64,000 bases of DNA from Laetmonice hystrix (lineage: Eukaryota): positions 25,918,001-25,982,000 of the forward strand of contig OZ249436.1 of NCBI GenBank assembly GCA_965235115.1, in the 5' to 3' direction. This document shows, one piece after another, positions 17,041 to 64,000 of this stretch (positions are counted from its first letter, which is position 1; each line of letters starts with the position of its first letter). Both the position numbers and the translations under genes were made by a program. Below the pieces are notes generated by a model, which saw only the letters and a list, made by a program, of their open reading frames with translations, did no database searches and was not told the origin of the DNA.

Positions 17041-17091
17041 TTCGAGTTCAAGTTCATTGATGAGGATACTACGCTAAAGTTGAGCGAGGAA

Positions 17092-29744: not shown

Positions 29745-29766
29745 GTGAAAAGAATCTGCAATAAAG

Positions 29767-37179: not shown

Positions 37180-37350
37180 TTGTGTCATAAGGAATGTTGA
37201 TCAATGCAAATTCAGTCAGCATAGACTGACTTGGTTATTATAGTAGTGTAAATAGTCATGTCATTTAGTAAGGTCAGAAGGAACTGAGATCTCCAGTTGA
37301 TACAGATATGTTGAGGTTTATAAAAGAATATTAATATTTTGGGGGCGGAG

Positions 37351-38708: not shown

Positions 38709-40430
38709 TAGCAACGAGAATGCAAAATTTCATATCCACTTTACAGCACTTTTCATTGTCTGTATTGACAGGGCTAGTGACACAGAGCTCAAATCTTTTT
38801 GAATTATGTTGATATTCTGAATATTAACGAAAATATAACCATAGTGTGAATTTATTTTCAATGGGCTTGGAGATCATTTTCTGGATCTGAGACAATGATA
38901 AACGAATGGAGGCCTGTCCAGGCTGATGGACCCTGAAAAAACACATTTTTTGGTGTTTATCTTTAACATATCTGTAGTTTTTATTATATCATTCTGAATT
39001 TTTGCTTACAGAGGTTTTTTCATATCAGGATTTCAAAAATGTTAGTGAAAATGATCTAATTTGCATATTTAAATGAGCTAATTTGCATAAATTATGTGAA
39101 ATAACAGATGCCGACCAGGAATTCATTGTAATCTGGTCAGTTAAATGGGGAATTTGAACAGTATCTCCTTTAAATTAAAACTGTAGCACAGGTTTTTGCA
39201 GTGCTATCAAATGAAATTAACCTCATTTGAATAAATCATAATTAATTTGCATATATTAACACATATAATAATTTGCATTTCATAGGGCGTACAGTTTTTC
39301 ATTTCCCCTCAGTTCATCACTCTCCAACTCCTGTGCGGACATGACATGTCAATCATTTCTGATCAATTTCAAAATTTGGAAAAGTCATAGCTGTGCACAA
39401 CAGGCATGGGATTCCTAAATTACCAGAAGTCTGAAATTTGGAGGGTAGGAACTGTGCAAAGCCCCTCAGCCTCAGGCTCTGACTCTCTTCCACGGCTTGA
39501 GCTCCCCCCCCCCCCCCCCCCCTTAAGTAACTTAAGCCGCCCAACTCCAACGTCCAAGGTTAAAACATGACTCATGAGCAGGTCTGAGTGAGACAGCCAA
39601 CAATCAAGATCACTAGGGCCCCTATTATATTCCATCATGATACATTAAAATCCTGTTTTGAGCCCACACCCTCCGCAAATTTGCTGGATTCGCCCCTACC
39701 CCAGCTGCTGGCGCTGACTGAGTGCATCTGTGCATGCATGGCGCTGCCACTGCCGCTCTCAGTCGGCAGCGTGCCCGCACTGTCAGTCACTGTCACACGC
39801 GTCGCTAAGGACGCTGAGCGCGGCGGCCGGATTAAGTCTCTCTGCTGCAGTCAATACTTGATGTACAAATTATTGGAAAACATGTTCAGATAGAAAAGAT
39901 ATTGGGCTTTCTAAAGGTATGCGAACTTAGTATGTGTCTTGTTCCATCTCTGGGGGGCCATCAGTTGAAATCTTGACAACATCTGCAGACAACCTTCCCG
40001 TGGGCGGATGTACTTAGTTCGACGACCGGCGTGAAGCTCATACTGTCCTCTGATTGGCTATATTTAAATCATTAAGATCCTAGCTGCGGAACTACCCGGC
40101 AAACATGAAGAGGCACACAGTACTTTTGCTCTGAGGGGTCCATGTGTGGGTTCCGCGACTGCGGTCACCGCGCTTGAGTCTGAGAGAACCACTGCGTTTA
40201 ACTCGCTGTAACCTCATCTTAAACTAAATAAACTACCATAAAAGTACCATGAATAGATTGGAAATTCTGTGTGGATTCTATCCATGCTTATTATGTTACA
40301 ATTAGATTAGATTTGAGGTAAGGTACATGGGTTTATTTGGGGACATGACTGTTGTCTAAAGCCAGCATGCATTCCTGGTTGTAACGTCAAAATCGGTCCC
40401 CTGCTCACTGGTAGCAGATTCACGTTGCTA
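38709..40430. mobile_element. Non-autonomous TIR element with 7-bp TSD
   Basis: TIR TAGCAACGAGAAT / ATTCACGTTGCTA. AATGAAG is duplicated at 38702-38708 and 40431-40437 within a core-repeat unit. Confidence 0.8.
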
Positions 40431-40826
40431 AATGAAGTCATCAATATTTTCTAAGGCCTAGAACTCTTCAACGGTGGGAGATAAAGCCATGGTTATTATT
40501 GAACACGAATAGGAAGTCATATATGTTCTTTCAATTGACACCAACATTTATTAGATAGCGTGACGTATGACGTCATAATGACATCATCAATATTTCCTAA
40601 GGCCTAGAACTCCTCAACGGTGGGAGATAAAGCCATGGTTACTATTGAACACGAATAGGAAGTCGTGCATGCTCTTTCAATTGACACCAAGTTTGATGAC
40701 GTAGGGTGAGGTATGACGTGATAATGACGTCATCAATATTTTCAAAGGCCTATAACTCCTCAACGGTGGGAGATAAAGCCATAGTTACTGTTGAACATGA
40801 ATAGGAAGTCGTGCATGCTCTTTCAA

Positions 40827-41143
40827 TTGTTTGACTTCTGTCACCATACTGGCCTCAAACACCCGATTGCTGAAAGTACCAGAGTGGCAGTAGGCAGCAG
40901 TTCGTGTATTGATAACATTCTCACAAATTGTGGAATAGTTGCTGCCCAGGGTGTCTTTAATCACCTTATAAGTGACCACCTTCCTGTATTTGCAATAAGA
41001 AAGAAGCAGAAAGTTAAAAGAGATATTATCACGTTTCTTGGAAGATCGTATAAAAATTACTGCAAGCATGACCTATGGGACCATTTAATCCACTGTGACT
41101 GGTCAAACTTCGACTGTTCAAAAGACCCCGAATTACAATGGTC
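40827..41143 (+). pseudogene. Non-LTR retrotransposon (CR1/L2-group) ORF2 fragment, end of the APE endonuclease domain
   Basis: STRVAVGSSSCIDNILTN..GVFNHLISDHLPVFAIRK..RSYKNY..DWS matches the APE motifs (TR..ID.I; SDH) and the following linker. Confidence 0.85.
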
Positions 41144-44100
41144 AACTAGACCCGTTGCGGTGATAACCACAATGGATCCCATCCCCTGGGGGGTCCCGTC
41201 TACCATGTTCTGATTTGTTCATAGAGAGATCTAGGGCTATTCAAAATTATGGTGTCGAATACAAGAGCATATATATAGCTTCCTGTTAGTGTTAGTGTTT
41301 AATAGTAGGTATAGCTCTAACTTCAACCATTTACAAGTTATAGCCCTAAGAAAATATGGATGATATCATTATGACCTGATAGGTCACGTGTCGTGAAAAA
41401 TAATGGTGCCAAATGAAAGAGCGTATATGACTTCCTATTAGTGTTTAATAGTAACTATGGCTCTAACTTCAACCATTTACAAGTTATAGCCCTGAGGAAA
41501 TATGGATACCATTCTTATGACATCACAGGTCACGTGACCTAAAAACGGTGCCAGAAGAAAGAGCATATATGGCTTCCTATTTGTTTCTGATAGTAACTGT
41601 GGTTCTATGTTCAACCATTTACAAGTTGTATCCCTGATAAAACATGTATGACATCGTTATGACGTCAGAGGTCACGTGACCTAAAAAATAATGGTCCCAA
41701 ATGAAAGAGCATACATGACTTCCTATTAGTGTTTAATAGCAATTATGGCTCTAACTTCAACCATTAACAAGCTATATCCTTGAGAAAATAATTATTATGA
41801 ATGACATCCTTATCATGCCTAGGTCACGTGACCTGAAATATAATGGTGCCAAATAAAAGAGCATATATGACTTCCTATTCATCTTTAATAGTAAGTATGA
41901 CTCTAACTTCAACCATTTACAAGTGATGGCCCTGAGAAAACATGGTTGACATCATTATGACGTCATAGGTCACGTGACCTGAAAAATAATGGTGTCAAGT
42001 GAAAGAACATATATGACTTCCTATTAGTGTTTAATAGTAACTATGGCTCTATCTTCAACCATTTACAAGTTATAGCCCTGAGAAAATATTGATGACATCG
42101 TTATGACATCATAGGTCACGTGACCTGAAAAATAATGGTGCCAAATGAAAGAGCATATATGACTTCCTATTCGTGTTCAATAGTAACTATGGCCCTATCT
42201 GGCACTGTTTAGAAGTTGTAGCCATAGATAGCTAAACTGGCCACTTTTGAAAATTTCAAGGTCACGTGATGAAGCCAATATAGGTCAAATCGCTTATCCT
42301 TGGATGTTTCTATTAAAACACTTGTTAGAGAGTGTTCCTGCCCAATATTGTCAAATTTTACCAATAAATGAAGAAGAAGTAGCGATTTAACCAATTTGTG
42401 AGGTCGGGCCCAGTTCTCCCTAAGGTCAAAGGTCAAAGGTCAAATGAAGGGTCAATTTTAGGCTAGACCCTTGCCTGATCACAACGCCATGATAGATCTT
42501 GAAAATTCCATTTAATATGAACTTTAAAAATGGCCCTCAATGTCCCAAACACGTTTGTTTGAGAAAAATAAGAAAATATGGATGATGTCATTAGGACCTG
42601 ATAGGTCACGTGACCTGAAAAATAATGGTGCCAAATGAAAGAGCATATATGACTTCCTATTCGTCTTCAATAGTAGACTAAGTATGACTCTAACCTCAAC
42701 CATTTACAAGTGATAGCCCTGCGAAAAGATAGATAACATCATTATGACGTCATAGGTCACGTGACCTAAAAAATAATGGTGTCAAGTGAAAGAGCATATG
42801 ACTTCCTATTAGTGTATAATAGTAACTATGGCTTATCTTCAACCATTTACAAGTTATCGCCCTGAGAAAATATGGATGACATCGTTATGAGGTCATAGGT
42901 CACGTGACCTGAAAAATAATGGTTTCAAGTGAAAGAACATATATGACTTCCTATTAGTGTTTAATAGTAACTATGGCTCTATCTTCAACCATTCACAAGT
43001 GATAGCCCTGAGAAAATATGGATGACATTCTTATGCCATCACAGGTCACGTGACCTAAAATAATAATGGTGCCACATGAAAGAGCATATATGACTTCCTA
43101 TTCATCTTCAATAGTAGACTAAGTATGACTCTAACTTCAACCATTTACAAGTGATGGCCCTGAGAAAACATGGTTGACATCATTATGACGTCATAGGTCA
43201 CGTGACCTGAAAAATACTGGTGTCAAGTGAAAGAGCATATATGACTTCCTATTAGTGTTTAATAGTAACTATGGCTCTATCTTCAACCATTTACAAGTTA
43301 TAGCCCTGAGAAAATATTGATGACATCGTTATGACGTCATAGGTCACGTGACCTAAAAAATAATGGTGCCAAATGAAAGAGTATATATGACTTCCTATTC
43401 GTGTTCAATAGTAACTATGGCCCTAACTGGCACTGTTTAGAAGTTATAGCCATAGATAGCTAAACTGGCCACTGTTGAAAACTTAAAGGTCACGTGATTC
43501 ATCGAATATAGGTCAAATCGCTTATCTTTGGATGATTCTATTAAAACACTTGTTAGAGAGTGTTCCTGTCCAATATTATCAAATTTTACCAAAAAATTAA
43601 GAAGAAGAAGCGATTTAACCGATTTGTGACCTAGGACCCAGTTCTCCCTTAGGTCAAAGGTCAAAGGTCAAATGAAGGGTCAGTTTTAGGCTAGACCCTT
43701 GCCTGATCATAACGCCGTGATAGATCTTGGAAATTCCAAATATGAACTTTGAAAATGGCCCTCAATATCCCAAACACGTTTGACGTCATGACGTCATGAC
43801 GTCACGTCACGTGACGTCATGACTGATTGTGTGACCTGACTTTGTCATGGTCAAGATCTCTGCCAAGTTTGATTGAGATATCTTGAAAAATGACTGAGAT
43901 AGAGGTACTGTTTACAACTACAACTACTACTACTACTACTACTACTACAACGCAAAAAACTAGACCCGTTGCGGTGATAACCACAATGGATCCCATCCCC
44001 TGGGGGGTCCTGTCTACCATGTTCTGATTTAGTAGAGAGAGCTAAGGCTATTCAAAATGATGGTGTCAAATGAAAGAACATATATATTGCTTCCTGTCAG

Positions 44101-47100
44101 TGTTAGTGTTTAATAGTAGGTACATAGCTCTAACTTCAACCATTTACAAGTTATAGCCCTAAGAAAATAAGAAAATATGGATGATGTCATTAGGACCTGA
44201 TAGGTCACGTGACCTGAAAAATAACGGTGCCAAATGAAAGAGCATATATGAATTCCCATTCGTGTTCAATAGTAACTATGACGCTAACTTCAACCGTTTA
44301 CAAGTGATAGCCCTGAGAAAATATGGATGGCATCATTATGACGTCATAGGTCACGTGACCTGAAAAATAATGGTGTCAAGTGAAAGAACATATATATGAC
44401 TTCCTATTAGTGTTTAATAGTAACTATGGCTCTATCTTCAACCATTCACAAGTTATAGCCCTGAGAAAATATGGATGACATTCTTATGCCATCACAGGTC
44501 ACGTGACCTAAAATAATAATGGTGCCACATGAAAGAGCATATATGACTTCCTATTCATCTTCAATAGTAGACTAAGTATGACTCTAACTTCAACCATTTA
44601 CAAGTGATGGCCCTGAGAAAACATGGTTGACATCATTATGACGTCATAGGTCACGTGACCTGAAAAATACTGGTGTCAAGTGAAAGAGCATATATGACTT
44701 CCTATTAGTGTTTAATAGTAACTATGGCTCTATCTTCAACCATTTACAAGTTATAGCCCTGAGAAAATATTGATGACATCGTTATGACGTCATAGGTCAC
44801 GTGACCTAAAAAATAATGGTGCCAAATGAAAGAGCATATATGACTTCCTATTCGTGTTCAATAGTAACTATGGCCCTAACTGGCACTGTTTAGAAGTTAT
44901 AGCCATAGATAGCTAAACTGGCCACTGTTGAAAACTTAAAGGTCACGTGATTCATCGAATATAGGTCAAATCGCTTATCTTTGGATGACTCTATTAAAAC
45001 CCTTGTTAGAGAGTGTTCCTGTCCAATATTATCAAATTTTACCAAAAAATTAAGAAGAAGAAGCGATTTAACCGATTTGTGACCTAGGACCCAGTTCTCC
45101 CTTAGGTCAAAGGTCAAAGGTCAAATGAAGGGTCAGTTTTAGGCTAGACCCTTGCCTGATCATAACGCCTTGATAGATCTTGGAAATTCCAAATATGAAC
45201 TTTGAAAATGGCCCTCAATATCCCAAACACGTTTGACGTCATGACATCATGACGTCACGTCACGTGACGTCATGACTGATTGTGTGACCTGACTTTGTCA
45301 TGGTCAAGATCTCTGCCAAGTTTGATTGAGATATCTTGAAAAATGACTGAGATACAGGTACTGTTTACAACTACAACTACTACTACTACTACTACTACAA
45401 CGCAAAAAACTAGACACGTTGTGGCGATACCACAATTGATCCCATCCCCGGGGAGTCACGTGATATATGACATGTTCTGAGTAGGGTAAACTATGGCTCG
45501 ATCTTGCACAGTTAATGACCTATAAGCTTTAGAAGATGCCAATGACGTAATTATGAGGTGACACGTCATACTGTGTAATGAATCTTGGTCTCAAATGAAA
45601 GAGCATGTAGGCTATATGACTTCCTATTACTGTTTAATAGTAACTATAGCTCTAACTTCTACCATTTACAAGTTAGGCCTATAGCCCTGAGAAAAATACC
45701 TATGACACCTTATGATGCCAGTCAAGTCACGTAAAAAAATGTCAAGTGAAAGATCATATATGACTTCCTATTAGGGTTAAATGGTAACCATTGCTCTATC
45801 TTGAATGGTTTAGGATTTAGAAACCTTCGAAGATGTCAATGGCATCATTATGACATAATAATATACATTACATCATAAATCTTGGTGTCAGTTTGAAAGA
45901 GCATACAATGTATATGACTTCCTATTCCTGTTCAATAGTAACCATGGCTCCATCTTGCACCGTTTACAAGTTATAGGCTGAAGAAATAATGATAACATCA
46001 TAACGTCATGCTCCTCCCGCAGGCATGCACAGATCCAGCACTGCACGAAAGGGGGGGCACCAGAGGTGCGAGGCGAACATGTGGGCGGGGACTTGAATCA
46101 GAGAACCTCGATATGGTATCGAGGTTCTTTGCTGGAATTTAGAAGGTCAAAAAACGCTATTTCTGGAGATAGATGTAAAGTTTCTCAAAGTATTTAAGGC
46201 GCGTGTCGGTAGACCCCATTCTCCGCCAGAACATAGATTCTTTTTCCCTTCAACACGGAACGAACAGGTGCAAAGCATTCCGGCTATTTTCAACTAGTTG
46301 AGTGATGAATCCACAAAATATAATGCCCTAAAATGGCCCTAAAAGGCGGAAAATCGTTTTATAAGAGCTTTTAATTTTTTAAGATTTCCCGAGACCCCTC
46401 TGCTGAAAATCCTGGACCCGTGGCTAGCCTAACAATAATTTTTTGTCAATTCTTCAAAAAGAAAGAGTGGGGGTATAGAGGGATGTGCCCACGCCGGGCG
46501 GCGCCGGGCGGCGCCGGGCGGCGCCACCCGGCACCGATTTTAGCCGCCTGGCACAAAACTAAAATGGTTTAAGTGCTGCCCGGCAGGAATTTTTATCAGG
46601 CCTATCATCTGAAAAAATATCTCCGCATCTGCACCCCTTGCCAACTGAAAACCTTGCGCCTTCGCTGCTAGCGCAAAACTACCGCCCGGCATTCATTTTT
46701 TTCTGGGCGCATCTGCCCATGGCAAGTTGACATGTGCACTGACAAGTGCTTTCCTATATATTTTAGTATTATACAAAAATGATAGCCTCATAACATAACA
46801 GTTCAATGTGTCTAATTACAGTGCTAATTTTCTCTTCACCCTTGTTAACATTTCTTTTTGGTAGTAGAGTCGTCGCTTGAGTTTTGAAGTTTTTATTCCT
46901 GAGGCACACGGTTGTCCCGCTTCGACCAATATGTCACTAGGCAGTCAGTGTCTATAATGTTCCTCATAGTCAAATCTATATATCTGTCCTTTCTCTGCTC
47001 CTTCTCCCCTAGTCTCTCTCTCTCTCTCTTGGTGCTCTCATATATCCCCTCGTTCACGTTTTTGCCCCAGTCCCAGTTTAAAGGATGGTCACTGGTCATT

Positions 47101-49179
47101 GGCCGGTGGCCCACGTCTAATTAACTGACCGCCCCCTGACCGGCTCCTTTGATTGAGAGCTGCCGCCCGATGGCTGGCATGTTATATGACTGAGAAGGTA
47201 CCTCTTCTATAAACAGTCCTTAAGTATTTCTCACAGAGCGTTCCCCTTCTCCCTTCCGCAGACCCGCTCAAGTGATTGCTGCATCTATTGTGTGCTGCTC
47301 GCCAGGACGACTGCATACCCGTCTACTGTGCACACCGTTCGTTCACTTCTATCTCTCGCCATTTAGCCAACACGTAGTCATACATCATGAAACTTTACCA
47401 ATAGGTGCGAATGTCATCCACACCAGACTGTTGGCTCAGGCTAAACCAAGTGCAGCTGACCAAAAGCTTGTCGTGTCACTTGAACTCCACAACCAACAAT
47501 CAGTAGTATTGTTTTATTCAGCTCTCCTACATAAGATTCAAAAACAAATGCATTAGGCAGTTACACCTACAGTTCAAAGGCACAGCTAAGTCAGTTCTGA
47601 ATACAGGTATATCGCCCATGATAACTTAAACTCCACGAAATTTGGTGGAAAGGAAAGATCCATGGCCCTGACCTTATCCCTAACCCCTAACCCCTAACCC
47701 CAGTTCCTACACCTCCCCAAAACATATCCCTACCCTACCCCTATCCCTGATATTAACCCTAACCCCTGCCCAAACATTTCGTGGAAAGTTATCATGGGGG
47801 ATAGAACCTGAATACACAATCATATTCCTCCCTCACTGGGAGGGAGGGGGGAGTAGGCCGGCCGGCCGGCCCTTATCACCAGCACTTACGTAACTCTCTC
47901 CCGGCCTGGCCAGGGACCGGCGGCCGCATCACAGTGGGAGATCTGTGTATTCAGAGATGCCAACTGTCAGACGGCAAAAATATTATTGTGAAGACTATAC
48001 CCATTAAAACTTACAATTCTGGCCATATTACCTTTCCAAAACAAGAACTAAACAGCCAGTGGTATACCTGAATCTATACACTTTGTAATTGTTGTATTTG
48101 TATATGGCTATCTTAAACAGGTTTAAGGTAGAGCCTGTCAACGTCAGATTACATTATTTCATCATAAATAAAAAATATATTGGTAAATTTATGAAAAGAA
48201 ATATGCAAAGTGATCAATCGTCAATAGCAGCACATATCTATTGACCAAATACACGATTCCTATATGACTAAAGCAGTTTTAGAAAAAAATGTCAAAAGTG
48301 ACAAACTTCAAAGTCACGTGGTTCGGTAAAAATAGGTCAAATCGCTAATCCTTGGAATCGTATTGTGAACCTTTCGTTAGAGAGTGTTTCTGCCGAATAT
48401 TGTCGAATTTTACCAAAAAATAGAAAAGGAGAAGCAATTTAACCGATTTGTGACCAATGACCCAGTTCACCCTAAGGTCAAAGGTCAAAGGTCAAATCAA
48501 GACTCAAATTGAGGCAGCACCTTTGGCCGATTATGAGGCCATGACGGGTTTTTAAAAAAATTCCCAATATGAGCTTAAAAATGGCTTCAATTTTCATAAT
48601 ACGTTTGACGTCATCACGTTATGACGTGACGTCACATGACGTCAGGATTCGATGCCTGACCATACTTCGTCATTGTCAAGATGTGTGCCAAATTTCATTT
48701 CGATATTTTGAAAATTGACTGAGATAGACGTACAAGTTTACTACTACTACTACTACTACTACAACTACGACGCCAAAAATAATACAGAAGAGGAAACCAC
48801 ACAATTTCTAAATCCCATCCCCTCCGTAGGGGATGGGATAATAATACAGAAGACGAAACCACACAATTTCTAAATCCCATCCCCTCCGTAGGGGATGGGA
48901 TAATAATAATAATAATAATAGGGAAGACGAAACCACACAATTTCTAAATCCCATCAACTGGATAGGGGATGGGATAACTAGACACGTTGTGGCGATACCA
49001 CAATTGATCCCATCCCTGGGGAGTCACGTGATATATGACTTCCTATTCCTGTTCAATAGTAACCATGGCTCAATCTTTCACCGTTTACGAGTTGGAGGCT
49101 TAGGAAAATAATGTTAATATCATTATAATCTCATACGTCATGATCCTGCTTTCATGCAGGCTCAGATCCAGTACCCCAA

Positions 49180-50130
49180 CAGGGAGTACGTTAGCGGTCG
49201 CCACGCTCGCAAACGCAAATACCTACCGCTTGTGGCGAGTTCCACTGCCAAAATAAACCAACAAATTCGCCACGCGTGCGAATTCCACTATCCCCCAGTT
49301 TATCTTTATAGCCCAGGTATCCCCTGGGAGTGCCGTTTCTCTCAAAGCCTGCACACCTCATCCGCCACATGTATTGACTGTGCTGGTGGAGCACGGTGTG
49401 TAGATGTGACATGTAGGTGATCAGGGACCATGGTGACCGATCCACCCAGCCCGGTCACTGCGCCAGGCCAGGGTTCCCCATATACGCACTGCCCAGGTCG
49501 GGCCGACCTCAGTGCTGGCCCGTCACCCCATGGCCCTCACTTCTCATGTCTGGGGTGACTTTGACAGATGGCATGAGATGCCAATCACCCTGTAGAAGTA
49601 TAGTTTAAATGCTATCCCGATTACCTGGCAGGCTGAGTGTGCTGGGAGAGGCCAGGTGATACATAGCTTGGTTGAGGTCACATGGCATGAAGGTGGGGAG
49701 TCAGCTCGGCCGGCTTATTAGTATGGGGTGGGGTCGGGGTTGTTAGGGGGGATCGCTGCAATAAGGGGTATATAGCCTAGGTATGGTACCCCTCAATGTG
49801 GGCCGGGCCCCTCCTGAGACATCCCAATATTCTTGCTGAGAGGGCCACTTGTGTAGAGTTATCCTAGCTCTAGACAGCTCATTCCTTTAAAAAAAACTGT
49901 CACTACACACAGGCAGCAAATGACAGCGAATGAAAGTACCTTTCTTTTAAGAAACAGCAAACACTTTATAATATACAGAGAAATTAATATAATGAACTCT
50001 GGTTTATCGAAATAAAAAAACCCCATTTCCTTAACAATACTGTGGCTAAAACTTTTTCCGTGTGGCTAGTTCTTTTCCTCAGTTGTTAGCCACTGTGGCT
50101 AAGACCCAAAATTCCCTAGTGTACTCCCTG
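49180..50130. mobile_element. CAGGG-terminated TIR element with 5-bp TSD (hAT5-like)
   Basis: TIR CAGGGAGTAC/GTACTCCCTG; TSD CCCAA/CGCAA; empty site (agtaccgcaagaa) in the sister unit at ~52284. Confidence 0.85.
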
Positions 50131-53100
50131 CGCAAGAAAGGAGGGGCACCAAAGGTGCAAGGCGAACATGGGCGCGGGGGGGGGGGGGCTTGAATTTAGA
50201 AAGTCAAAGAACGTTACTTCTGGAGCTAGATGTGAAGTTTCTCAAAGTATTTCAGGCGCATGTAGGGGTCCGGGGGTTGGACCCCCTCTCCTGCTCCCCC
50301 AGAGCATAGATTCATTTTTCCTTAGATTCAGCGGGACACCATCGAACGAACAGGTGCAAAGCATTCTGCCTATTTTAAACTGGTTGAGTGATGAATAGGC
50401 CTACACAAAATATAGTGCACTAAATGGGTCCATAAAAGGCTTCTAATTTAAAAAAAAAACATTTCGGCGACCACCCTGCTGAAAATCCTAGATACGTGGC
50501 TGTATTTAGACCTAGCCTAACAATAATGTCAATTCTTTAAAAAGAAAGAGTGCAGATACGCCCCTGACATGTCGAAAGGGATCATAGAGATCTACTGCAT
50601 GGTATATCTACCTATTTTGATATATTAATCATTGTGGAAGGATACATTAAAATCGTAATTATATCTAGAGACTCTGATTGCCAAGCAAGGTAGGTCCCAT
50701 TTCCCGAATGGTTTTCTATCATTACCTATATTTTTCTCTCATTTAATTATTGTCCCAACAATAGCGTCATTTCCATTCACATGGAAGTTACTAAGTATTC
50801 TTTTGACATTATGAAATATTATAGTCCTGATGGATTATATGGATTATACCCGTTACGGGCATCATGAAAAATATCACAGACTCAAGAACAATAGGTGCGA
50901 ATGCCATCCACACCAGGCTGTTGGCTCACGCTGAAACCAAGTGCAGCTGGCCAAAAGTTTGCCGTGTCTCTTGAACTCCACAGCCAACAATCAGTAGTAG
51001 CCTAGTGTTTTATTCAGCTCTCCTATGTAAGATTTAAAAACAAATGCATTAGACAGTTATATCCACAGTTCAAAGGCACAGCTAATTCAGTTATGTCAGT
51101 TCTGAATACACAATCATCCTCCACCAAACCGACCCTGACTGGGAGGGAGGGGGCGGAGTCACAACCCGCCCCGGCCGCCTGGCCGGCCCTTATCACCAGC
51201 GCTTACGTAACCCTCTGCCGACCCTGGCTCTGGCCTCCCAGCAGGTGATTTGTGTATTCAGAGATGCCACCTGTCAGAGTGTAAAAATATTATAGTGAAG
51301 ACTATACCCATTAAAACTTACAATTCTGGCCATATTACCTTTCCAAAACAAGAACTAAACAGTCAGTGGTATACCTAAATCTATACACTTTGTAATTGTT
51401 GTATTTGTATATGGCTATCTTAAACAGGTTTAAGGTAGAGCCTGTCAACGTCAGATTACATTATTTCATCATAAATAAAAAAGATATTGGTAAATTTATG
51501 AAAAGAAATATGCAAAGTGACCAATCGTCAATAGCAGCACATATCTAGTGACCAAATACACGATTCCTATATGACTAAAGCAGTTTTAGAAAAAAATGTC
51601 AAAAGTGACAAACTTCAAAGTCACGTGGTTCGGCGAAAATAGGTCAAATCGCTAATCCTTGGAATCGTATTGTGAACCTTTCGTTAGAGAGTGTTTTTGC
51701 CGAATATTGTCGAATTTTACCAAAAAATAGAGAAGGAGAAGCAATTTAACCGATTTGTGACCAATGACCCAGTTCACCCTAAGGTCAAAGGTCAAAGGTC
51801 AAATCAAGACTCAAATTGAGGCAGCACCTTTGGCCGATTATGAGGGCATGACGGGTTTTTAAAAAAAATTCCCAATATGAGCTTAAAAATGGCTTCAATT
51901 CTCATAATACGTTTGACGTCATCACGTCATGACGTGACGTTACATGACGTCAGGATTCGATGCCTGACCATACTTTGTCATTGTCAAGATGTGTGCCAAA
52001 TTTCATTTTGATATTTTGAAAATTGACTGAGATAGACATACAAGTTTACTACTACTACTACTACTACTACAACTACGACGCCAAAAACTAGACACGTTGT
52101 GGCGATACCACAATTGATCCCATCCCGGGGGAGTCACGTGATATATGACTTCCTATTCCTGTTCAATAGTAACCATGGCTCAATCTTTCACCGTTTACGA
52201 GTTGGAGGCTTAGGAAAATAATGTTAATATCATTATAATCTCATACGTCGATCATGATCCTGCTTTCATGCAGGCTCAGATCCAGTACCGCAAGAAAGGA
52301 GGGGCACCAAAGGTGCAAGGCGAACATGGGCGCGGGGGGGGGGGGGGGACTTGAATTTAGAAAGTCAAAGAACGTTACTTCTGGAGCTAGATGTGAAGTT
52401 TCTCAAAGTATTTCAGGCGCATGTAGGGGTCCGGGGGTTGGACCCCCTCTCCTGCTCCCCCAGAGCATAGATTCATTTTTCCTTAGATTCAGCGGGACAC
52501 CATCGAACGAACAGGTGCAAAGCATTCTGCCTATTTTAAACTGGTTGAGTGATGACTACTGAATAGGCCTACACAAAATATAGTGCACTAAATGGGTCCA
52601 TAAAAGGCTTCTAATTTAAAAAAAAAAACATTTCGGCGACCACCCTGCTGAAAATCCTAGATACGTGGCTGTATTTAGACCTAGCCTAACAATAATGTCA
52701 ATTCTTTAAAAAGAAAGAGTGCAGATACGCCCCTGACATGTCGAAAGGGATCATAGAGATCTACTGCATGGTATATCTACCTATTTTGATATATTAATCA
52801 TTGTGGAAGGATACATTAAAATCGTAATTATATCTAGAGACTCTGATTGCCAAGCAATACAGGTAGGTCCCATTTCCCGAATGGTTTTCTATCATTACCT
52901 ATATTTTTCTCTCATTTAATTATTGTCCCAACAATAGCGTCATTTCCATTCACATGGAAGTTACTAAGTATTCTTTTGACATTATGAAATATTATAGTCC
53001 TGATGGATTATATGGATTATACCCGTTACGGGCATCATGACAAATATCACAGACTCAAGAACAATAGGTGCGAATGCCATCCACACCAGGCTGTTGGCTC

Positions 53101-56100
53101 ACGCTGAAACCAAGTGCAGCTGGCCAAAAGTTTGCCGTGTCTCTTGAACTCCACAGCCAACAATCAGTAGTAGCCTAGTGTTTTATTCAGCTCTCCTATG
53201 TAAGATTTAAAAACAAATGCATTAGACAGTTATATCTACAGTTCAAAGGCACAGCTAATTCAGTTATGTCAGTTCTGAATACACAATCATCCTCCACCAA
53301 ACCGACCCTGACTGGGAGGGAGGGGGCGGAGTCACAACCCGCCTGCCAACCCGGCCGCCTGGCCGGCCCTTATCACCAGCGCTTACGTAACCCTCTGCCG
53401 ACCCTGGCTCTGGCCTCCCAGCAGGTGATTTGTGTATTCAGAGATGCCACCTGTCAGAGTGTAAAAATATTATAGTGAAGACTATACCCATTAAAACTTA
53501 CAATTCTGGCCACATTACCTTTCCAAAACAAGAACTAAACAGTCAGTGGTATACCTGAATCTATACACTTTGTAATTGTTGTCTTTGTATATGGCTATCT
53601 TAAACAGGTTTAAGGTAGAGCCTGTCAACGTCAGATTACATTATTTCATCATAAATAAAAAAGATATTGGTAAATTTATGAAAAGAAATATGCAAAGTGA
53701 CCAATCGTCAATAGCAGCACATATCTAGTGACCAAATACACGATTCCTATATGACTAAAGCAGTTTTAGAAAAAAATGTCAAAAGTGACAAACTTCAAAG
53801 TCACGTGGTTCGGCGAAAATAGGTCAAATCGCTAATCCTTGGAATCGTATTGTGAACCTTTCGTTAGAGAGTGTTTTTGCCGAATATTGTCGAATTTTAC
53901 CAAAAAATAGAGAAGGAGAAGCAATTTAACCGATTTGTGACCAATGACCCAGTTCACCCTAAGGTCAAAGGTCAAAGGTCAAATCAAGACTCAAATTGAG
54001 GCAGCACCTTTGGCCGATTATGAGGGCATGACGGGTTTTTAAAAAAAATTCCCAATATGAGCTTAAAAATGGCTTCAATTTTCATAATACGTTTGACGTC
54101 ATCACGTCATGACGTGACGTTACATGACGTCAGGATTCGATGCCTGACCATACTTTGTCATTGTCAAGATGTGTGCCAAATTTCATTTTGATATTTTGAA
54201 AATTGACTGAGATAGACATACAAGTTTACTACTACTACTACTACTACAACTACGACGCCAAAAATAATACAGAAGACGAAACCACACAATTTCTAAATCC
54301 CATCCCCTCCGTAGGGGATGGGATAATAATACAGAAGACGAAACCACACAATTTCTAAATCCCATCCCCTCCGTAGGGGATGGGATAATAATAATAATAA
54401 TAATAGGGAAGACGAAACCACACAATTTCTAAATCCCATCCCCTGGATAGGGGATGGGATAACTAGACCCGTTGCGGTGATAACCACAATGGATCCCATC
54501 CCCTGGGGGGTCCTGTCTACCATGTTCTGATTTAGTAGAGAGAGCTAAGGCTATTCAAAATGATGGTGTCAAATGAAAGAACATATATATTGCTTCCTGT
54601 CAGTGTTAGTGTTTAATAGTAGGTACATAGCCCTAACTTCAAGCATTTACAAGTTATAGCCCTAAGAAAAATAAGAAAATATGGATGATGTCATTAGGAC
54701 CTGATAGGTCACGTGACCTGAAAAATAATGGTGCTAAATGAAAGAGCATATATGACTTCCTATTCGTGTTCAATAGTAACTATGACGCTAACTTCAACCG
54801 TTTACAAGTGATAGCCCTGAGAAAATATGGATGACATCATTATGACGTCATAGGTCACGTGACCTGAAAAATAATGGTGTCAAGTGAAAGAACATATATG
54901 ACTTCCTATTAGTGTTTAATAGTAACTATGGCTCTATCTTCAACCATTCACAAGTTATAGCCCTGAGAAAATATGGATGACATTCTTATGCCATCACAGG
55001 TCACGTGACCTAAAATAATAATGGTGCCACATGAAAGAGCATCTATAATGACTTCCTATTCATCTTCAATAGTAGACTAAGTATGACTCTAACTTCAACC
55101 ATTTACAAGTGATGGCCCTGAGAAAACATGGTTGACATCATTATCACGTCATAGGTCACGTGACCTGAAAAATAATGGTTTCAAATGAAAGATCATATAT
55201 GACTTCCTATTAGTGTTTAATAGTAACTATGGCTCTATCTTCAACCATTTACAAGTTATTGCCCTGGGAAGATATTGATGACGTCATAGGTCACGTGACC
55301 TGAAAAATAATGGTGCCAAATGAAAGAGCATGACTTCCTATTCGTGTTCAATAGTAACTATGACCCTAACTGGAAATGTTTAGAAGTTATAGCCATAGAT
55401 AGCTAAACTGGCCACTGTTGAAAACTTCAAGGTCACGTGATTCATCGAATATAGGTCAAATCGCTTATCTTTGGGTGATTCTATTAAAACCCTTGTTAGA
55501 GAGTGTTCCTGTCCAATATTATCAAATTTTACCAGAAAATTAAAAAGAAGTAGCGATTTAACTGATTTGTGACCTAGGACCCAGTTCTCCCTAAGGTCAA
55601 AGGTCAAAGGACAAATGAAGGGTCAGTTTTAGGCTAGACCCTTGCCTGATCATAACGCCATGATAGATCTTGGAAATTCCAAATATGAACTTTGAAAATG
55701 GCCCTCAATATCCCAAACACGTTTGACGTTATGACGTCATGACGTGACGTCACGTGACGGCATGACTGATTGTGTGACCTGACTTTGTCATGGTCAAGAT
55801 CTCTGCCAAGTTTGATTGAGATATCTTGAAAAATGACTGAGATAGAGGTACTGTTTACAACTACAACTACTACTACTACTACAACGCAAAAAACTAGACA
55901 CGTTGTGGCGATACCACAATTGATCCCATCCCCGGGGAGTCACGTGATATATATATGACATGTTCTGAGTAGGATAAACTATGGCTCGATCTTGCACAGT
56001 TAATGACTTATAAGCTTTAGAAGATGCCAATGACGTAATTATGAGGTGACACGTCATACTACGTAATAAATCTTGGTCTCAAATGAAAGAGCATGTATAT

Positions 56101-57838
56101 ATGACTTCCTATTACTGTTTAATAGTAACTATAGCTCTAACTTGTACCATTTACAATTTATAGCCCTGAGAAAAATACCTATGACACCTTATGATGTCAG
56201 TCAAATCACGTAAAAAAATGTCAAGTGAAAGATATATGACTGTCTATGAGTTTTTAATAGTAACTATGTCTCTAACGCCAACCATTTACAAGTTTTAGCC
56301 AAACTAACATATCGACTTCCATCTGACGTCATAGGTCACGTCGTCACCTAAAAATAATGGTGTCGAAGGAAAGAGAATATGTGACTTCCTAGTAGGGTTA
56401 AATGGTAACCATTGCTCTATCTTGAATGGTTTAGGATTTAGAAACCTTCGAAGATGTCAATGGCATCATTATGACATCATATGATACATTACATCATAAA
56501 TCTTGGTGTCAATTGAAAGAGCATACAATGTATAGGCCTATGACTTCCTATTCCTGTTCAATAGTAACCATGGCTCCATCTTGCACCGTTTACAAGTTAT
56601 AGGCTGAAGAAATAATGATAACATCATAACGTCATGCTCCTCCTGCAGGCATGCACAGATCCAGCACTGCACGAAAGGAGGGGCACCAAAGGTGCGAGGT
56701 GAACATTGTGTGCGGGGACTTGAATCAAAGAACCTCGATATGGTATCGAGGTTCTTTGCTGGAATTTAGAAGGTAAAAAAACGCTATTTCGGGAGATAGA
56801 TGTGACGTTTCTCAAAGTATTTAAGGCGCGTGTCGGCAGACCCCATTCTTCGCCAGAACATAGATTCTTTTTCCCTTCAACACCGAACTAACAGTTGCAA
56901 AGCATTCCGGCTATTTTGAACTGGTTGAGTGATGAATCCACAAAATATAAATCCCTAAAATGTCCCTAAAAGGCCGGAAATCGCTTCTAAGAGCTTTTAA
57001 TTTTTAAAGATTTCCCGAGACCCCTCTGCTGAAAATGCTGGACCCGTGGCTAGCCTAACAATATTGTTTTGTCAATTCTTCAAAAGGAAAGAGTGGGGAT
57101 ATAGAGGGATGTGCCCACGCCGGGCGGCGCCGGGCGGCGCCGGGCGGGGCCACCCGGCACCGATTTTAGCCGCCTGGCACAAAACTAAAATGGTCCAAGT
57201 GCTGCCCGGCAGGAATTTTCATCAGGCCTATCATCTGAAAAAATATCCCCCCATCTGCACCCCTTGCCAACTGAAAACCCTGTGCCTAAATAGCCCCCCC
57301 CCCCCCTTGCCAACTGAAAACCTTGCGCCTTCGCTGCTAGCGCAAAACTACCGCCCGGCATTCATTTTTTTCTAGGCACATCTGCCCATGGGAAGTTGAC
57401 ACTGACAAGTGCTTTCCTATATAATTTAGTATTACAGGTCGTATACAAAAATGATAGCATCATAAGATAACAGTTCAATGTGTCTAATTACAGTGCTAAT
57501 TTTGTCTTCTTCATCCCAGGGAAATGTTTTATAACAAATGTATTCACCCTTGTTAACATTTCTTTTTGGTAGTAGAGTCGTCGCTTGATGTTTGAAGTTT
57601 TAATTCCTGAGGCACACGGTTGTCCCGCTTCGACCAATATGTCACTATATATAGGCAGTCAGTGTCTATATGTTCCTCATAATCAAATCTATATATCTCT
57701 GTCCTTTCTCTGCTCCTTCTCCCCTAGTCTCTCTCTCTCTCTTGGTGCTCTTATATATCCCCTCGTTCACGTTTTTGCCCCAGTCCCAGTTTAAAGGATG
57801 GTCACTGGTCATTGGCCGGTGGCCCACGTCCAATTAAC

Positions 57839-59261
57839 CAGGGATGAAAGTTTTCAGGAAATTTCCTGAAATCAGGAAATTTGAAAAAATCCCCCCCCCC
57901 CAAGAAATAACACCCAAAAAAGGAAATAGGCCTAGATCTATAGGCAAAAGGGGTAGGCCTAAGCCAAGGCTAAGTATTGCCCTGGACTGTGTGGTGGGCA
58001 ATTTTATTTGTTAAATTTATATCAAATGAAACAATATCCCCTTTCAGGACGTTTTTTAACACCATGCAGCTCAATATATCTCTACCTGCCCAAAGTTCGT
58101 TTATAGATGGGGATATTAGAGTGTCTCAAAACCGTCCAGTGTCACGGGTACCGCCGTGCATAGGCCGGTCTGCCGGGGGTGCTGGTGTGTACCGCCCGCG
58201 GTCCCTGTGGGCTGACTTCTACCGGCACGCGGTGGCGTCTGTCCCGTCTGGCAGGCACGACCCCGTGTCGCTGTGGTGAGAGCGACTCACCTCAGGTAAT
58301 GACTTCAGGCAAAACTGATGGTCAGGCAGCTGCGAAGCCCGTTGATTCAGGCTTGCCATTATGCCATATCCATGCGCGAGTTTTGCCTGAGCGCCTACTT
58401 AGTGACAGCAACGAGACTATAGACAGACCGGTCTGTCTAGTCCCGGAGTTGGTGATAGTGATTAGGCTGACGAACTACGCACCATCACAATGTCACAGGA
58501 AACTGGGTCAATTTAGTTCTATGAATCTGCCTAGTATATGTCATATGTCAGTAAGTTCTCATAATGTTTTCTTGCATATAAATTTGAGGATAATGGCATT
58601 ACGTAAGTGGTTTTCACTGAAGTTTTGGGGTTGTCAGGACTTTTCATTACATTTGTTGATCAGTGCAGGTGTCCTGATAAGACCGGAAGTGACAATATTT
58701 ACAACAACGTGAGTGGCACATGGACACACGGGCTGAACCACTCGACTCAGCGACTGTGTTGCTTGGCTGAGAGCCGCTGAGGGTCGTGACTGCTGAGGGT
58801 CAAGACTGATATACAGCCTGTGTGGTCAGTCTAACACATGGAAGCTGTTTGACAACGTAATTGGGTGCATTTTGGATGCTAAAAGCCGACTGGATTCCAA
58901 TGTTGGAGAGAGACGGCAGAGCCAGGCAGAGGTTGACAGTGACACTGAGTGACAGGCAAGCAACAGCCTTGAACAGGGGCATGGACTGATGAGTGATGGA
59001 GTCTATCCAGCAAATTTGCAGGGGGTTGGGGGGTGGGGGTGGGGGGGGTGGCGACTAAATACTGAGGGCTAGGCCATATAATAGCTAGGAGGCCTTATCG
59101 GATCATGATTGTCTGCTGTTCCTAGCCTGACTTTTTTAAGGGGGGGGGGGTAAGCCCCTTGGATGTGCGCATGAACAAATATTAATTATGGACATTGGCC
59201 CCCGCTGCTGCCCCCCGGTCAGGATTTCAGGAAATTTTACCGCTGGCCACTTTCATCCCTG
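57839..59261. mobile_element. CAGGG-terminated TIR element with 7-bp TSD
   Basis: TIR CAGGGATGAAAGT/ACTTTCATCCCTG; AATTAAC duplicated at 57832-57838 and 59262-59268; empty site at ~62851. Confidence 0.88.
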
Positions 59262-59698
59262 AATTAACTGACCGCCCCCTGACCGGCTCCTTTGATTGAG
59301 AGCTGCCGCCCGATGGCTGGCATGTTATATGACTGAGAAGGTGCCTCTTCTATAAACAGTCCTTAAGTATTTCTCACAGAGCGTTCCCCATCTCCCTTCC
59401 GCATACCCGCTCAAGTGATGGCTGCATATATTGTGTGTGCTGCTCGCCAGGACGAATGCATACCTGTCTACTGTGCATACCGTTCGTTCACTTCGCTATT
59501 TAGCCAACACGTAGTCATACATCACGAAACTTTACCAATAGGTGCGAATGTCATCCACACCAGACTGTTGGCTCAGGCTGAAACCAAGTGCAGCTGACCA
59601 AAAGTTTGTCGTGTCACTTGAACTCCACAACCAACAATCAATAGTATTGTTTTATTCAGCTCTCCTATATAAGATTCAAAAACAAATGCATTAGGCAG

Positions 59699-60074
59699 CA
59701 TAGGCGCCAGAAGCGGGGGGGCAGGGGGGTCGACCGCCCCCTCAATAATCTGGTTGGGGGGGCATCGCCCCCCCAATAATCTCTGAACATAAATGAAAAA
59801 AGGCAGGTTTTTCCACATACAGTAGGCCTGTTGAAACCATGACTTGGGTGCTTCAAAGAGTGGGTCGATTGTCCTATTGATACATTGTAATCTATTCATT
59901 CACGCCATCAAAACATAAAAAATCTTGCCTCAAAATGGTGTAGAAAAGTGTTTTAGGCCGTGTGTAGTTTTCAAAAATTTCTCGGGGAGGGCATACGATC
60001 CTGCTTGTTGTAGCCTCTGACTTTCGCTTCAGCTCTCTTGCCCCCCCAATAATAATTTGCTTCCGGCGCCCCTG
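59699..60074. mobile_element. hAT-like MITE with 8-bp TSD
   Basis: TIR CATAGGCGCCAGAAGC / GCTTCCGGCGCCCCTG; TTAGGCAG duplicated at 59691-59698 and 60075-60082; empty sites at ~47553 and ~63288. Confidence 0.88.
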
Positions 60075-63000
60075 TTAGGCAGTTACACCTACAGTTCAAA
60101 GGCACAGCTAATTCAGTTATGTCAGTTCTGAATACACAATCACATTCCTCCAACCCCAGCCTGACTGCGAGGGAGGGAGGAGTAGTCACAACAGACCACC
60201 GCCGGCCGGCCGACCCTTATCACCAGCACTTACGTAACCCTCTGCCGACGCTGGCCCTGTCCTAACAGCGGGTGATTAGTGTATTCAGAGATGCCACCTC
60301 TCAGAGTGTAAAAATATTATAGTGAAGACTATACCCATTAAAACTTACAATTCTGGCCATATTACCTTTCCAAAACAAGAAGTAAACAGTCAGTGGTATA
60401 CCTGAATCTATACACTTTGTAATTGTTGTATTTGTATATGGCTATCTTAAACAGGTTTAAGGTAGAGCCTGTCAACGTTAGATTACATTATTTCATCATA
60501 AATAAAAAAAATATTGGTAAATTTATTAAAAGAAATATGCAAAGTGATCAATCGTCAATAGCAGCACATATCTAGTGACCAAATACACAAGTCTTATATG
60601 ACTGAAGCAGTTTTAGAAAAGAAAGTCAAAATTGACAAACTTCAAAGTCACGTGGTTCAGCGAAAATAGGTCAAATCGCTTATCCCAGGATGTTTCTTGT
60701 GGAACTTTCTTTTGAGAGTGTTTCTGCCCAATATTGACATATTTGACCAAAGAATGAGGAAAGAGAAGGGATTTTACTGATTTGTGACCTTGGACCCAAT
60801 TCTCCCTTAGGTCAAAGGTCAAAGGTCAAATCAAGGCTCAGAGGTAGGCAGCACCCTTGGCCAATTACGAAGCCATAATGTGTTTTGTTTTTAAATGTCA
60901 ACATAAGCTTTAAAAATGACCTCAAAGTTCAAAATACGTTTGATGTCATGACGTCATGACGTGACGTCACATGACGTCATGACTCACTGCCTGATTATAC
61001 TTTGTCATTACGAAGATGTGTGCCAAATTTCATTGGGATATCTTGAAAAATGACTGAGATAGACATACATGTTAACTACAACTACAACTACACCCGCCAA
61101 AAATAATAATACAGAAGACGAAACCACACAATTTCTAAATCCCATCCCCTCCGTAGGGGATGGGATAACTAGACACGTTGTGGCGATACCACAATTGATC
61201 CCATCCCCGGGGAGTCACGTGATATATGACATGTTCTGAGTAGGGTAAACTATGGCTCGATCTTGCACAGTTAATGACCTATAAGCTTTAGAAGATGCCA
61301 ATGACGTAATTATGAGGTGACATGTCATACTGTGTAATGAATCTTGGTCTCAAATGAAAGAGCATGTAGGCTATATGACTTTAAATTTCTATTACTGTTT
61401 AATAGTAACTATAGCTCTAACTTCTACCATTTACAATTTATAGCCCTGAGAAAAATACCTATGACACCTTATGATGCCAGTCAAGTCACGTAAAAAAATG
61501 TCAAGTGAAAGATCATATATGACTTCCTATTAGGGTTAAATGGTAACCATTGCTCTATCTTGAATGGTTTAGGATTTAGAAACCTTCGAAGATGTCAATG
61601 GCATCATTATGACATAATAATGATACATTACATCATAAATCTTGGTGTCAGTTTGAAAGAGCATACAATGTATATGACTTCCTATTCCTGTTCAATAGTA
61701 ACCATGGCTCCATCTTGCACCGTTTACAAGTTATAGGCTGAAGAAATAATGATAACATCATAACGTCATGCTCCTCCCGCAGGCATGCACAGATCCAGCA
61801 CTGCACGAAAGGGGGGGGCACCAGAGGTGCGAACATGTGGGCGGGGACTTGAATCAGAGAACCTCGATATCGTATCGAGGTTCTTTGCTGGAATTTAGAA
61901 GGTCAAAAATCGCTATTTCTGGAGATAGATGTAAAGTTTCTCAAAGTATTTAAGGCGCCTGTCGGTAGACCCCATTCTCCGCCAGAACATAGATTCTTTT
62001 TCCCTTCAACACAGAACGAACAGGTGCAAAGCATTCCGGCTATTTTCAACTAGTTGAGTGATGAATCCACAAAATATAATGCCCTAAAATGGCCCTAAAA
62101 GGCGGAAAATCGTTTTATAAGAGCTTTTAATTTTTTAAGATTTCCCGAGACCCCTCTGCTGAAAATCCTGGACCCGTGGCTAGCCTAACAATAATTTTTT
62201 GTCAATTCTTCAAAAAGAAAGAGTGGGGGTATAGAGGGATGTGCCCACGCCGGGCGGCGCCACCCGGCACCGATTTTAGCCGCCTGGCACAAAACTAAAA
62301 TGGTTTAAGTGCTGCCCGGCAGGAATTTTTATCAGGCCTATCATCTGAAAAAATATCTTCCCATCTGCACCCCTTGCCAACTGAAAACCTTGCGCCTTCG
62401 CTGCTAGCGCAAAACTACCGCCCGGCATTCATTTTTTTCTGGGCGCATCTGCCCATGGCAAGTTGACATGTGCACTGACAAGTGCTTTCCTATATATTTT
62501 AGTATTATACAAAAATGATAGCCTCATAACATAACAGTTCAATGTGTCTAATTACAGTGCTAATTTTCTCTTCACACTTGTTAACATTTCTTTTTGGTAG
62601 TAGAGTCGTCGCTTGAGTTTTGAAGTTTTTATTCCTGAGGCACACGGTTGTCCCGCTTCGACCAATATGTCACTAGGCAGTCAGTGTCTATATGTTCCTC
62701 ATAGTCAAATCTATATCTCTGTCCTTTCTCTGCTCCTTCTCCCCTAGTCTCTCTCTCTCTCTTGGTGCTCTCATATATCCCCTCGTTCACGTTTTTGCCC
62801 CAGTCCCAGTTTAAAGGATGGTCACTGGTCATTGGCCGGTAGCCCACGTCCAATTAACTGACCGCCCCCTGACCGGCTCCTTTGATTGAGAGCTGCCGCC
62901 CGATGGCTGGCATGTTATATGACTGAGAAGGTACCTCTTCTATAAACAGTCCTTAAGTATTTTTCACAGAGCGTTCCCCTTCTCCCTTCCGCAGACCCGC

Positions 63001-64000
63001 TCAAGTGATTGCTGCATCTATTGTGTGTGCTGCTCGCCAGGACGACTGCATACCTGTCTACTGTGCACACCGTTCGTTCACTTCTATCTCTCGCCATTTA
63101 GCCAACACGTAGTCATACATCATGAAACTTTACCAATAGGTGCGAATGTCATCCATACCAGACTGTTGGCTCAGGCTAAACCAAGTGCAGCTGACCAAAA
63201 GCTTGTCGTGTCACTTGAACTCCACAACCAACAATCAGTAGTATTGTTTTATTCAGCTCTGCTACATAAGATTCAAAAACAAATGCATTAGGCAGTTACA
63301 CCTACAGTTCAAAGGCACAGCTAAGTCAGTTCTGAATACAGGTATATCGCCCATGATAACTTAAACTCCACGAAATTTGGTGGAAAGGAAAGATCCATGG
63401 CCCTGACCTTATCCCTAACCCCTAACCCCTAACCCCAGTTCCTACACCTCCCCAAAACATATCCCTACCCTACCCCTATCCCTGATATTAACCCTAACCC
63501 CTGCCCAAACATTTCGTGGAAAGTTATCATGGGGGATAGAACCTGAATACACAATCATATTCCTCCCTCACTGGGAGAGAGGGGGGAGTAGGCCGGCCGG
63601 CCAGCACTTATCACCAGCACTTACGTAACTCTCTCCCGGCCTGGCCAGGGACCGGCGGCCGCATCACAGTGGGAGATCTGTGTATTCAGAGATGCCAACT
63701 GTCAGACGGCAAAAATATTATTGTGAAGACTATACCCATTAAAACTTACAATTCTGGCCATGTTACCTTTCCAAAACAAGAACTAAACAGCCAGTGGTAT
63801 ACCTGAATCTATACACTTTGTAATTGTTGTATTTGTATATGGCTATCTTAAACAGGTTTAAGGTAGAGCCTGTCAACGTCAGATTACATTATTTCATCAT
63901 AAATAAAAAATATATTGGTAAATTTATGAAAAGAAATATGCAAAGTGATCAATCGTCAATAGCAGCACATATCTATTGACCAAATACACGATTCCTATAT

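Follow-up and report, generated by a model that had tools for sequence, protein, structure and literature searches.

The subject of this work is a 64,000-nucleotide stretch of the Laetmonice hystrix genome (assembly GCA_965235115.1, contig OZ249436.1, positions 25,918,001 to 25,982,000 of the forward strand), called here the window, whose minus strand carries between 41144 and 64000 a block of units with the anatomy of Helentrons, a type of rolling-circle transposon. Within this block the short 5' hairpin module of the element (the head) is stacked in several copies at some places and missing in front of the body at others, and nearly all of the junctions fall on a T^T step, which lies either where a head begins or, 33-45 nt behind the hairpin of a head, within its (ATT)n/T run. 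We think it likely that the block is a self-nested pile, generated by repeated self-insertion of the element and by composites that moved with an outer head as their start or ran past a first end. The junction positions and the family structure of the units are read from the DNA; from them we infer the enzyme, the order of events and the movement of composites.

In the mechanism that we propose, a RepHel protein supplied in trans would insert new copies, in the same orientation, at the post-head T^T of a resident copy, leaving the host's head in front of the newcomer and the host's headless body behind it. T^T would be recreated at both junctions by each such insertion, and the post-head site could therefore be used again, giving rise to the end-to-head joins. 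Composites mobilized from an outer head would carry several heads and one body, as at 25.5 kb, and those mobilized past the first end would carry one head and two bodies; later deletions and other transposons would then have scrambled the order.

Heads, ends and bodies of the minus-strand block

A complete unit is made up, in order, of a 5' subterminal inverted repeat (subTIR) with its own inverted repeat, a 30-nt core, (ATT)n, a T run, (GTA)n, the body, a 3' subTIR, a stem-loop and the terminal TCTAG(T). The 5' subTIR, ATCCCATCCCC, comes directly after TT at the start of the unit, and its reverse complement is found upstream of all nine ends in the window, with 1 mismatch in two ends of the C family; this 3' subTIR stops 30-31 nt before the cut and hence begins ~41 nt before it. 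The hairpin of the head, with a 12-bp stem and a 4-nt loop, folds at -14.2 kcal/mol (z -5.8) and none of 200 shuffles was equally stable, which places it far above chance stability; both types of 3' end have a stem of 6-7 bp, with a z of only -1.9 and -1.3 for the fold of the whole end. These traits are those of the HINEs: subTIRs of 11-15 bp, the 5' one situated 2-4 nt from the start; a partial inverted repeat that forms a hairpin with the 5' subTIR; a 3' subTIR at ~38-60 bp from the end, with a short stem-loop behind it; and a non-coding interior with a microsatellite behind the 5' core ((TAC)n arrays) and central tandem repeats (~146 bp in the B- and D-type bodies; only decayed repeats in the A bodies). 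The window holds 24 coding frames of at least 130 aa, of which one falls in 41144-64000, where it belongs to an unrelated insertion, and another extends over part of the flank of the block; the family's own DNA in the block contains no frame of 130 aa or more. By their anatomy, then, the units are classed as putative non-autonomous Helentrons (HINE/DINE-1, HLE2 type) of at least four subfamilies with common termini. A preliminary description of this DNA had already called the element Helentron-like.

There are seven hairpin heads on the minus strand of the block, which start at 61166, at 54460, 54386 and 54324, and at 48975, 48901 and 48839, and thus form stacks of one, three and three. The 3' end TCTAGTT, seen on the plus strand as AACTAGA, occurs eight times (41144, 43958, 45408, 48976, 52086, 54461, 55892 and 61167). 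Four of these ends (43958, 45408, 52086 and 55892) continue into the T run and (GTA)n that begin a headless body, three (48976, 54461 and 61167) meet a head via TT, and the remaining one, at 41144, adjoins DNA foreign to the family, a fragment resembling a long interspersed nuclear element (LINE). The preliminary description had listed the same seven heads, the same four joins at the T run and the same three ends abutting a head, and each of them was recovered here. All junctions are at TT. In the C host there are 7 T across the two junctions, against 5 T where head and body meet uninterrupted; the surplus would be explained equally well by two T that came with the element and by a TT duplication of 2 bp, and these two cannot be told apart.

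The bodies (Table 1) belong to family A (U0, U1, U5 and, on the plus strand, P1), family B (U2, U6, U7a and U7b, all four headless), family C (U3 and U4) and family D (the plus-strand host). The 5' parts of the A, B and C types are 75-81% alike and are 61-69% alike to D, with the exception of the C-like start of U5. If the head zone is defined as the start TT plus the post-core run, it holds 6-7 of the 237-477 same-strand TT steps of a unit (~2%); eight of the nine ends in the window meet this zone, and so do all eight of those that land in family DNA, in agreement with the clustering at the post-head T/(ATT)n site that was first noticed in the preliminary description. With a generous 4% for the head zone, and four of five events counted as independent, this clustering of the junctions has a P of ~1e-5. 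The other A+T4 runs, 12-21 per unit, are used by no junction. Joins at the equivalent site are found in hosts of families B, C and D, the 5' parts of which are 61-79% alike.

The two triple stacks are 98.5% alike, and their likeness ends at the first base of the outer head, upstream of which lie two different end families (76% alike over 200 nt). A segmental duplication, to which the matching stacks had initially been attributed, is therefore disfavored, and we rejected it as their source; the pattern argues instead for heads that may be specific to a subfamily or for a triple head that may have moved as a unit. A single rolling-circle concatemer was rejected too, for the end-to-head neighbors are of different families. 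The ends of U0 and U5 are 99.5% identical and have different neighbors, and U1 and U5 (95.3%) are both joined to a B body, which suggests that the junction with B may have formed twice, by repeated events or by conversion. The block is also too heterogeneous for the satellite-like array that had been envisaged. Its units, 1.4-5.2 kb long, are not homogeneous head-to-tail copies in regular order, but come from three body families in irregular succession and carry private, unrelated insertions. It is a mixed pile, and not a homogeneous satellite or higher-order array.

The plus-strand nest and a proposed order of insertion

The preliminary description had put forward self-insertion as the main builder of the block, and this idea is strengthened by a second nest, on the plus strand and outside the interval that it covered. 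Here, at 25532-29007, four heads (starting at 25534, 25602, 25664 and 25729) are followed by one body, an end at 28015 and then a headless, diverged body of family D. Immediately before the stack is a decayed head core, with 16 of 19 positions matching the head core, a score equaled by 2 unrelated windows among 7108 scanned. We read the decayed core on the left of the plus-strand element and the D body on its right as the two parts of a single probable host, and this arrangement is, in our opinion, the best sign of an insertion behind a head. The 146-bp array of host D was split in turn by a BEL/Pao long terminal repeat (LTR) element (29008-38067) and by a terminal inverted repeat (TIR) element (38709-40430).

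The segment 25532-28022 has four heads, one body and one end, and multi-headed 5' ends would thus probably travel as a unit; the surplus heads appear either to have been carried along or to have lost their bodies. Dispersed single copies that routinely carry multiple heads had been named in the preliminary description as a sign against its interpretation. The element at this one locus goes part of the way towards that; it fits with nesting after which a composite transposed from its outer head.

The order of insertion can be approached by treating each head as an opening and each end as a closing bracket. Between 54460 and 41144, if the end lost at the 42557/42562 fusion is included, our parse has six heads and six ends that make up a valid bracket string, in which both heads with an ATCC loop close on B bodies and three of the four with an ACGG loop close on A or C bodies. 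The apparent body at 41144-43957 consists of two partial bodies joined at this fusion, ~380 bp, including an end, being missing with respect to an end/body junction. The preliminary description had drawn attention to the equality of seven heads and seven bodies. The seven heads stand, but there are eight body pieces, the last body being the fusion, and the bracket depth becomes negative; we therefore rejected the equality as proof of nesting and consider it a coincidence. The probable hosts look older than their inserts: U4 has an insertion that is absent from U3, U7b is the most diverged of the B bodies, and D has been split twice.

Some further information comes from the contigs of four public sequencing runs, which were compared with 60300-61350 and in which depth is not a measure of copy number. 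In the public contigs of organism A the family is present in great abundance. Among the joints listed, a head-to-head joint reached depths of 493, 730 and 850 in three runs made from a single sample, ~10x that of the rarest joints listed, and in a separate marine metagenome one 95-nt record holds two consecutive heads. Two records at the termini, ambiguous in strand and in coordinates, were set aside. Half of the words sampled were present in public runs of a single coded organism, and runs X1 and X2 contained only small shares (0.08 and 0.07).

A number of observations weigh against repeated self-insertion at the post-head site. The P value for the clustering of the junctions applies to a single window chosen for its odd look and is not genome-wide. 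A bracket reading begun at 61166 drops to a depth of -1 at 54461, so that strict order fails in the window, and in the shorter parse U6, a B body, closes on an ACGG head. The plus-strand stack of four heads has only one body of its own, and a search for a hairpin at the decayed head core (25500-25531) gave none that was clear (fold z -0.9). If an end-head-body tandem lost its head precisely, exactly the letters of a headless junction would be left, and the pairs U3/U4 (99.7%) and U6/U7a (99%, 5' part) could be local duplications. No end-to-post-head joint is among the joints listed from the public contigs, and one of the four runs has an end connected to another part of the body (61051 to 61167, 6 other letters, depth 146). 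Nor did a Pfam scan of nine frames, comprising the flank and 8 of the 24 in the window, bring up a RepHel partner; the matches are to Pao, tyrosine-recombinase and reverse transcriptase (RT) families, and the rolling-circle mechanism is accordingly inferred from the termini.

Other possible origins and the significance of the proposed landing site

The best of the competing explanations, although we judge it unlikely, is that heads were shuffled without insertion of a full element, the head behaving as a mini-element between two T^T nick sites. An early stop behind the head followed by re-initiation, or rolling-circle concatemers of the 62-nt module, would then stack heads, and the precise loss of heads from head-to-tail tandems would leave headless bodies. 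Excision of a head between its two T^T steps would indeed yield the exact headless junction of the C type; the first T^T lies 30 nt behind the head's inverted repeat, much as the 3' cut lies 30-31 nt from the 3' subTIR; the inner heads 54386 and 54324 are identical, and four heads share one body at 25.5 kb; and in plants, Helitron arrays in which many 5' ends share a single 3' end have been reported (Xiong 2016, as cited in a review). However, the junctions that were used lie 33-45 nt from the repeat and not 30, the stacks mix ATCC- and ACGG-loop variants, two variants being apparently common in the public contigs (61136 and 61138; ~1/5-1/3 of depth), and head shuffling leaves unexplained the decayed head core and the diverged body that flank the plus-strand element.

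It is also improbable that the block grew out of just one or two nested insertions made by chance, through local tandem duplication and unequal exchange, with slippage at (ATT)n multiplying heads and unequal crossing-over multiplying end-plus-body units. The very close similarity of several pairs would be accounted for in this way (U3/U4 at 99.7%, or 7 differences in 2151 sites; U0/U5 at 99-100%; U6/U7a at 99% over the first 480 nt; the stacks at 98.5%), as would the switch of family in U5 after ~750 bp, and the 42557/42562 fusion demonstrates that deletions do occur. Yet the likeness of the twin stacks stops at the first base of the outer head, with different end families upstream, the site is shared by B, C and D hosts and so is not covered by a single founding event, and the plus-strand cluster has the opposite orientation and is 13 kb distant. 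An assembly artefact, in which copies of a very abundant repeat were collapsed or falsely duplicated, is very improbable: the abundance of the family in organism A, the 7 differences in 2151 sites between U3 and U4 and the lack of any public record spanning even the 1-kb stretch compared would be compatible with it, but the units belong to different families and are further set apart by a deletion and by private TIR insertions that have target duplications, their junctions are base-precise at element termini, and head-head joints are present in the run contigs.

If self-insertion did build the pile, the question arises of what makes the post-head site attractive. It is conceivable, though we hold it doubtful, that this site is a built-in pseudo-end where RepHel would bind and nick, so that resident copies would recruit incoming ones. 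The inverted repeat of the head is a direct copy of the 3' subTIR and is followed by a similar motif, and the spacing from it to the first T^T (30 nt) is close to that between the 3' subTIR and the true cut (30-31 nt). In the region after the subTIR, the likeness of the head core to the A end was equaled by 72 of 5000 shuffles; that to the B end, with 660 of 5000, is not clear. Such mimicry of an end is opposed, as is head shuffling, by the 33-45 nt spacing of the junctions in use. If true, it would constitute a self-targeting rule for Helentrons, funneling copies into safe piles and seeding arrays.

Helentrons are known to favor TT/T-rich targets (PMC4067079). The comparisons that follow refer to the accessible portions of the publications cited. 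The units share with HINE/DINE-1 (Thomas et al. 2014, PMC4067079) and with the oyster Cg_HINE (PMC7492417) the 5' subTIR with its partial inverted repeat, the microsatellite, central tandem repeats (140-180 bp), the 3' subTIR with a stem-loop, the TT/T-rich target and the lack of coding capacity; those elements, however, are described as dispersed, and neither head stacks with headless bodies nor a preferred internal site appear in the portions consulted. The idea that self-insertion gives multiple 5' ends is not new, as it has already been proposed for Fusarium Helitrons: FoHeli of Fusarium oxysporum (Chellapan et al. 2016, PMC5148889) has several short 5' termini that are moved as units, and self-insertion followed by nicking at the outer end was suggested as their origin. 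The same paper reports three tandem copies in Metarhizium acridum, possibly the result of two insertions into the 5' end. FoHeli differs in being fungal and in having repeat lengths that vary between strains (31, 65, 73, 85 nt), hence no single fixed site, and the text at hand describes neither headless remainders nor a >20-kb multi-family pile like that of the window. HelenXT233 of Xenopus tropicalis (PMC11417382) is an animal HLE2 element that inserts at T-T and has two non-identical left termini in direct repeat, each of which marks a subfamily, but it is autonomous and has only two heads, and its description, in the part available, includes no mechanism or array.

For a canonical Helitron, circles and end bypass have been shown (PMC4778049). 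Dimers of transposable elements (TEs) can arise by double insertion at a preserved target and are a source of satellites (McGurk and Barbash 2018, PMC5932611), and plant centromeric Helitron arrays have many 5' ends (Xiong 2016, via review PMC12628747). Both resemble the window block in that site preference or rolling-circle amplification yields tandems able to seed satellites. As far as the sources go, however, they require a target duplication or yield near-identical concatemers, whereas in the block the target is inside the element, the neighbors are of different subfamilies, and surplus heads occur along with headless bodies. A fixed post-head landing site in animal HINEs was not found in the literature searched by title and abstract (coverage incomplete, supplements excluded), and self-nesting is not treated in the portions seen of PMC11934779, PMC3630058 and PMC8268682. 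On the reading that we think likely, the block is a clear animal example of Helentron self-insertion that has kept both the heads and the headless bodies.

The choice of target by Helentrons has so far been known only as "TT, T-rich". A fixed and reusable landing site within the 5' end of the element itself would account for Helentrons with several heads and would offer a way for a dispersed rolling-circle element to give rise to long arrays. Nests of this kind would record the order of insertion and could be used to date subfamilies; annotation tools that pair one left end with one right end would misread them. For the RepHel of HLE2 elements, the question becomes whether the site is picked by sequence (the ATT/T run) or by the neighboring hairpin.

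Feature coordinates and neighboring elements

Table 1. Units, heads and flanking features of the two nests, in window coordinates
Feature	Position	Strand	Description
Decayed head core and T run	25500..25531	+	Immediately before the four-head stack; probable head remnant of host D
Four-head stack	25532..25792	+	Outer ATCC-loop variant and three ACGG-loop variants
P1	25793..28022	+	Single A-type body with internal deletions; TCTAGTT end
Host D	28023..40829	+	Headless diverged body, 61-69% to others; ends at LINE-like fragment
Flank	40830..41143	+	Probably part of a LINE endonuclease/RT frame; interrupted at TT by the last end of the block
U7b	41144..42557	-	More diverged B body, ~90% to U7a, without first ~175 bp; block's last 3' end
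U7a	42562..43957	-	Headless B body without 3' end (fusion 42557/42562)
U6	43958..45407	-	Headless B body; end joined to another headless B body
U5	45408..48777	-	First ~750 bp C-like, rest A family; end joined to headless B body
Second three-head stack	48778..48975	-	3 differences in 198 bp vs first stack; upstream neighbor of a different end family
U4	48976..52085	-	Headless C-family body, 99.7% to U3; 951-bp TIR insertion (49180-50130), none in U3
U3	52086..54262	-	C-family body; end joined to headless C body at T run
Three-head stack	54263..54460	-	Outer ATCC-loop head and two ACGG-loop heads
U2	54461..55891	-	Headless B-family body, 146-bp tandem repeats; end adjoins head stack
U1	55892..61104	-	Diverged A-type body, two unrelated TIR insertions; end joined to headless B body
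Single head	61105..61166	-	5' subTIR and inverted repeat hairpin (ACGG loop), 30-nt core, (ATT)n
U0	61167..64000	-	A-family body, 3' end at 61167; own head past window edge; 99-100% to U5 (300-nt steps)

The LINE-like flank has a weak Pfam match to Exo_endo_phos_2 (E 0.023) that is under the cut-off; at E 0.01 it has no Pfam match, and it has none in solved structures. Four unrelated TIR elements lie inside the units: those at 57839-59261 and 38709-40430 have 7-bp target duplications, that at 59699-60074 has one of 8 bp, and that at 49180-50130 an imperfect one of 5 bp. In addition, an insertion of ~200 bp with inverted ends and telomere-like (CCCTAA-type) repeats occurs at 47606-47808, 63339-63545 and 26768-26983; it is presumably inherited with the subfamily, because it occupies the same place in three A-type bodies.

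A scan for the termini in viral contigs gave 0 and 0 matches. With a looser terminus pattern there were 47 matches in prokaryote genomes and 86 in metagenomes, and when these 133 loci were compared with the window, the 3 BLAST matches were to a CA-type or 146-bp repeat motif, with no head or end among them; no copy of the family was thus found in these three public collections. Two of the metagenome contigs (loci L106 and L114) lack the family's ends but contain a repeat of ~150 bp that is related to the 146-bp one and shares its core motif. Within the window itself a further 146-bp array, ~70% alike to the family's central repeats and with no visible termini, is present at 13938-14535.

The remainder of the window is populated by other mobile and repeated sequences. 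The BEL/Pao retrotransposon at 29008-38067, on the plus strand, has a 5-bp target duplication and TG...CA ends, and its 737-bp LTRs are 96% alike; stops interrupt its frames, as does an insertion at ~30670-32920 whose inverted ends are long. A second BEL/Pao element, on the same strand at 16497-23428, is young, with 549-bp LTRs that are 99.5% alike and frames of 923 and 883 aa that match DUF1759, protease, Peptidase_A17 and integrase. A DIRS-like retrotransposon occupies 6049-10124 on the minus strand, where an RT frame with a weak Dam methylase match overlaps a tyrosine-recombinase frame. At 10505-11153 there is a 71-bp minisatellite of ~8 copies that are 82% alike, and at 11706-11749 lies an unrelated hairpin with CTAGTT behind it, which may be the 3' end of another family of the Helitron type.

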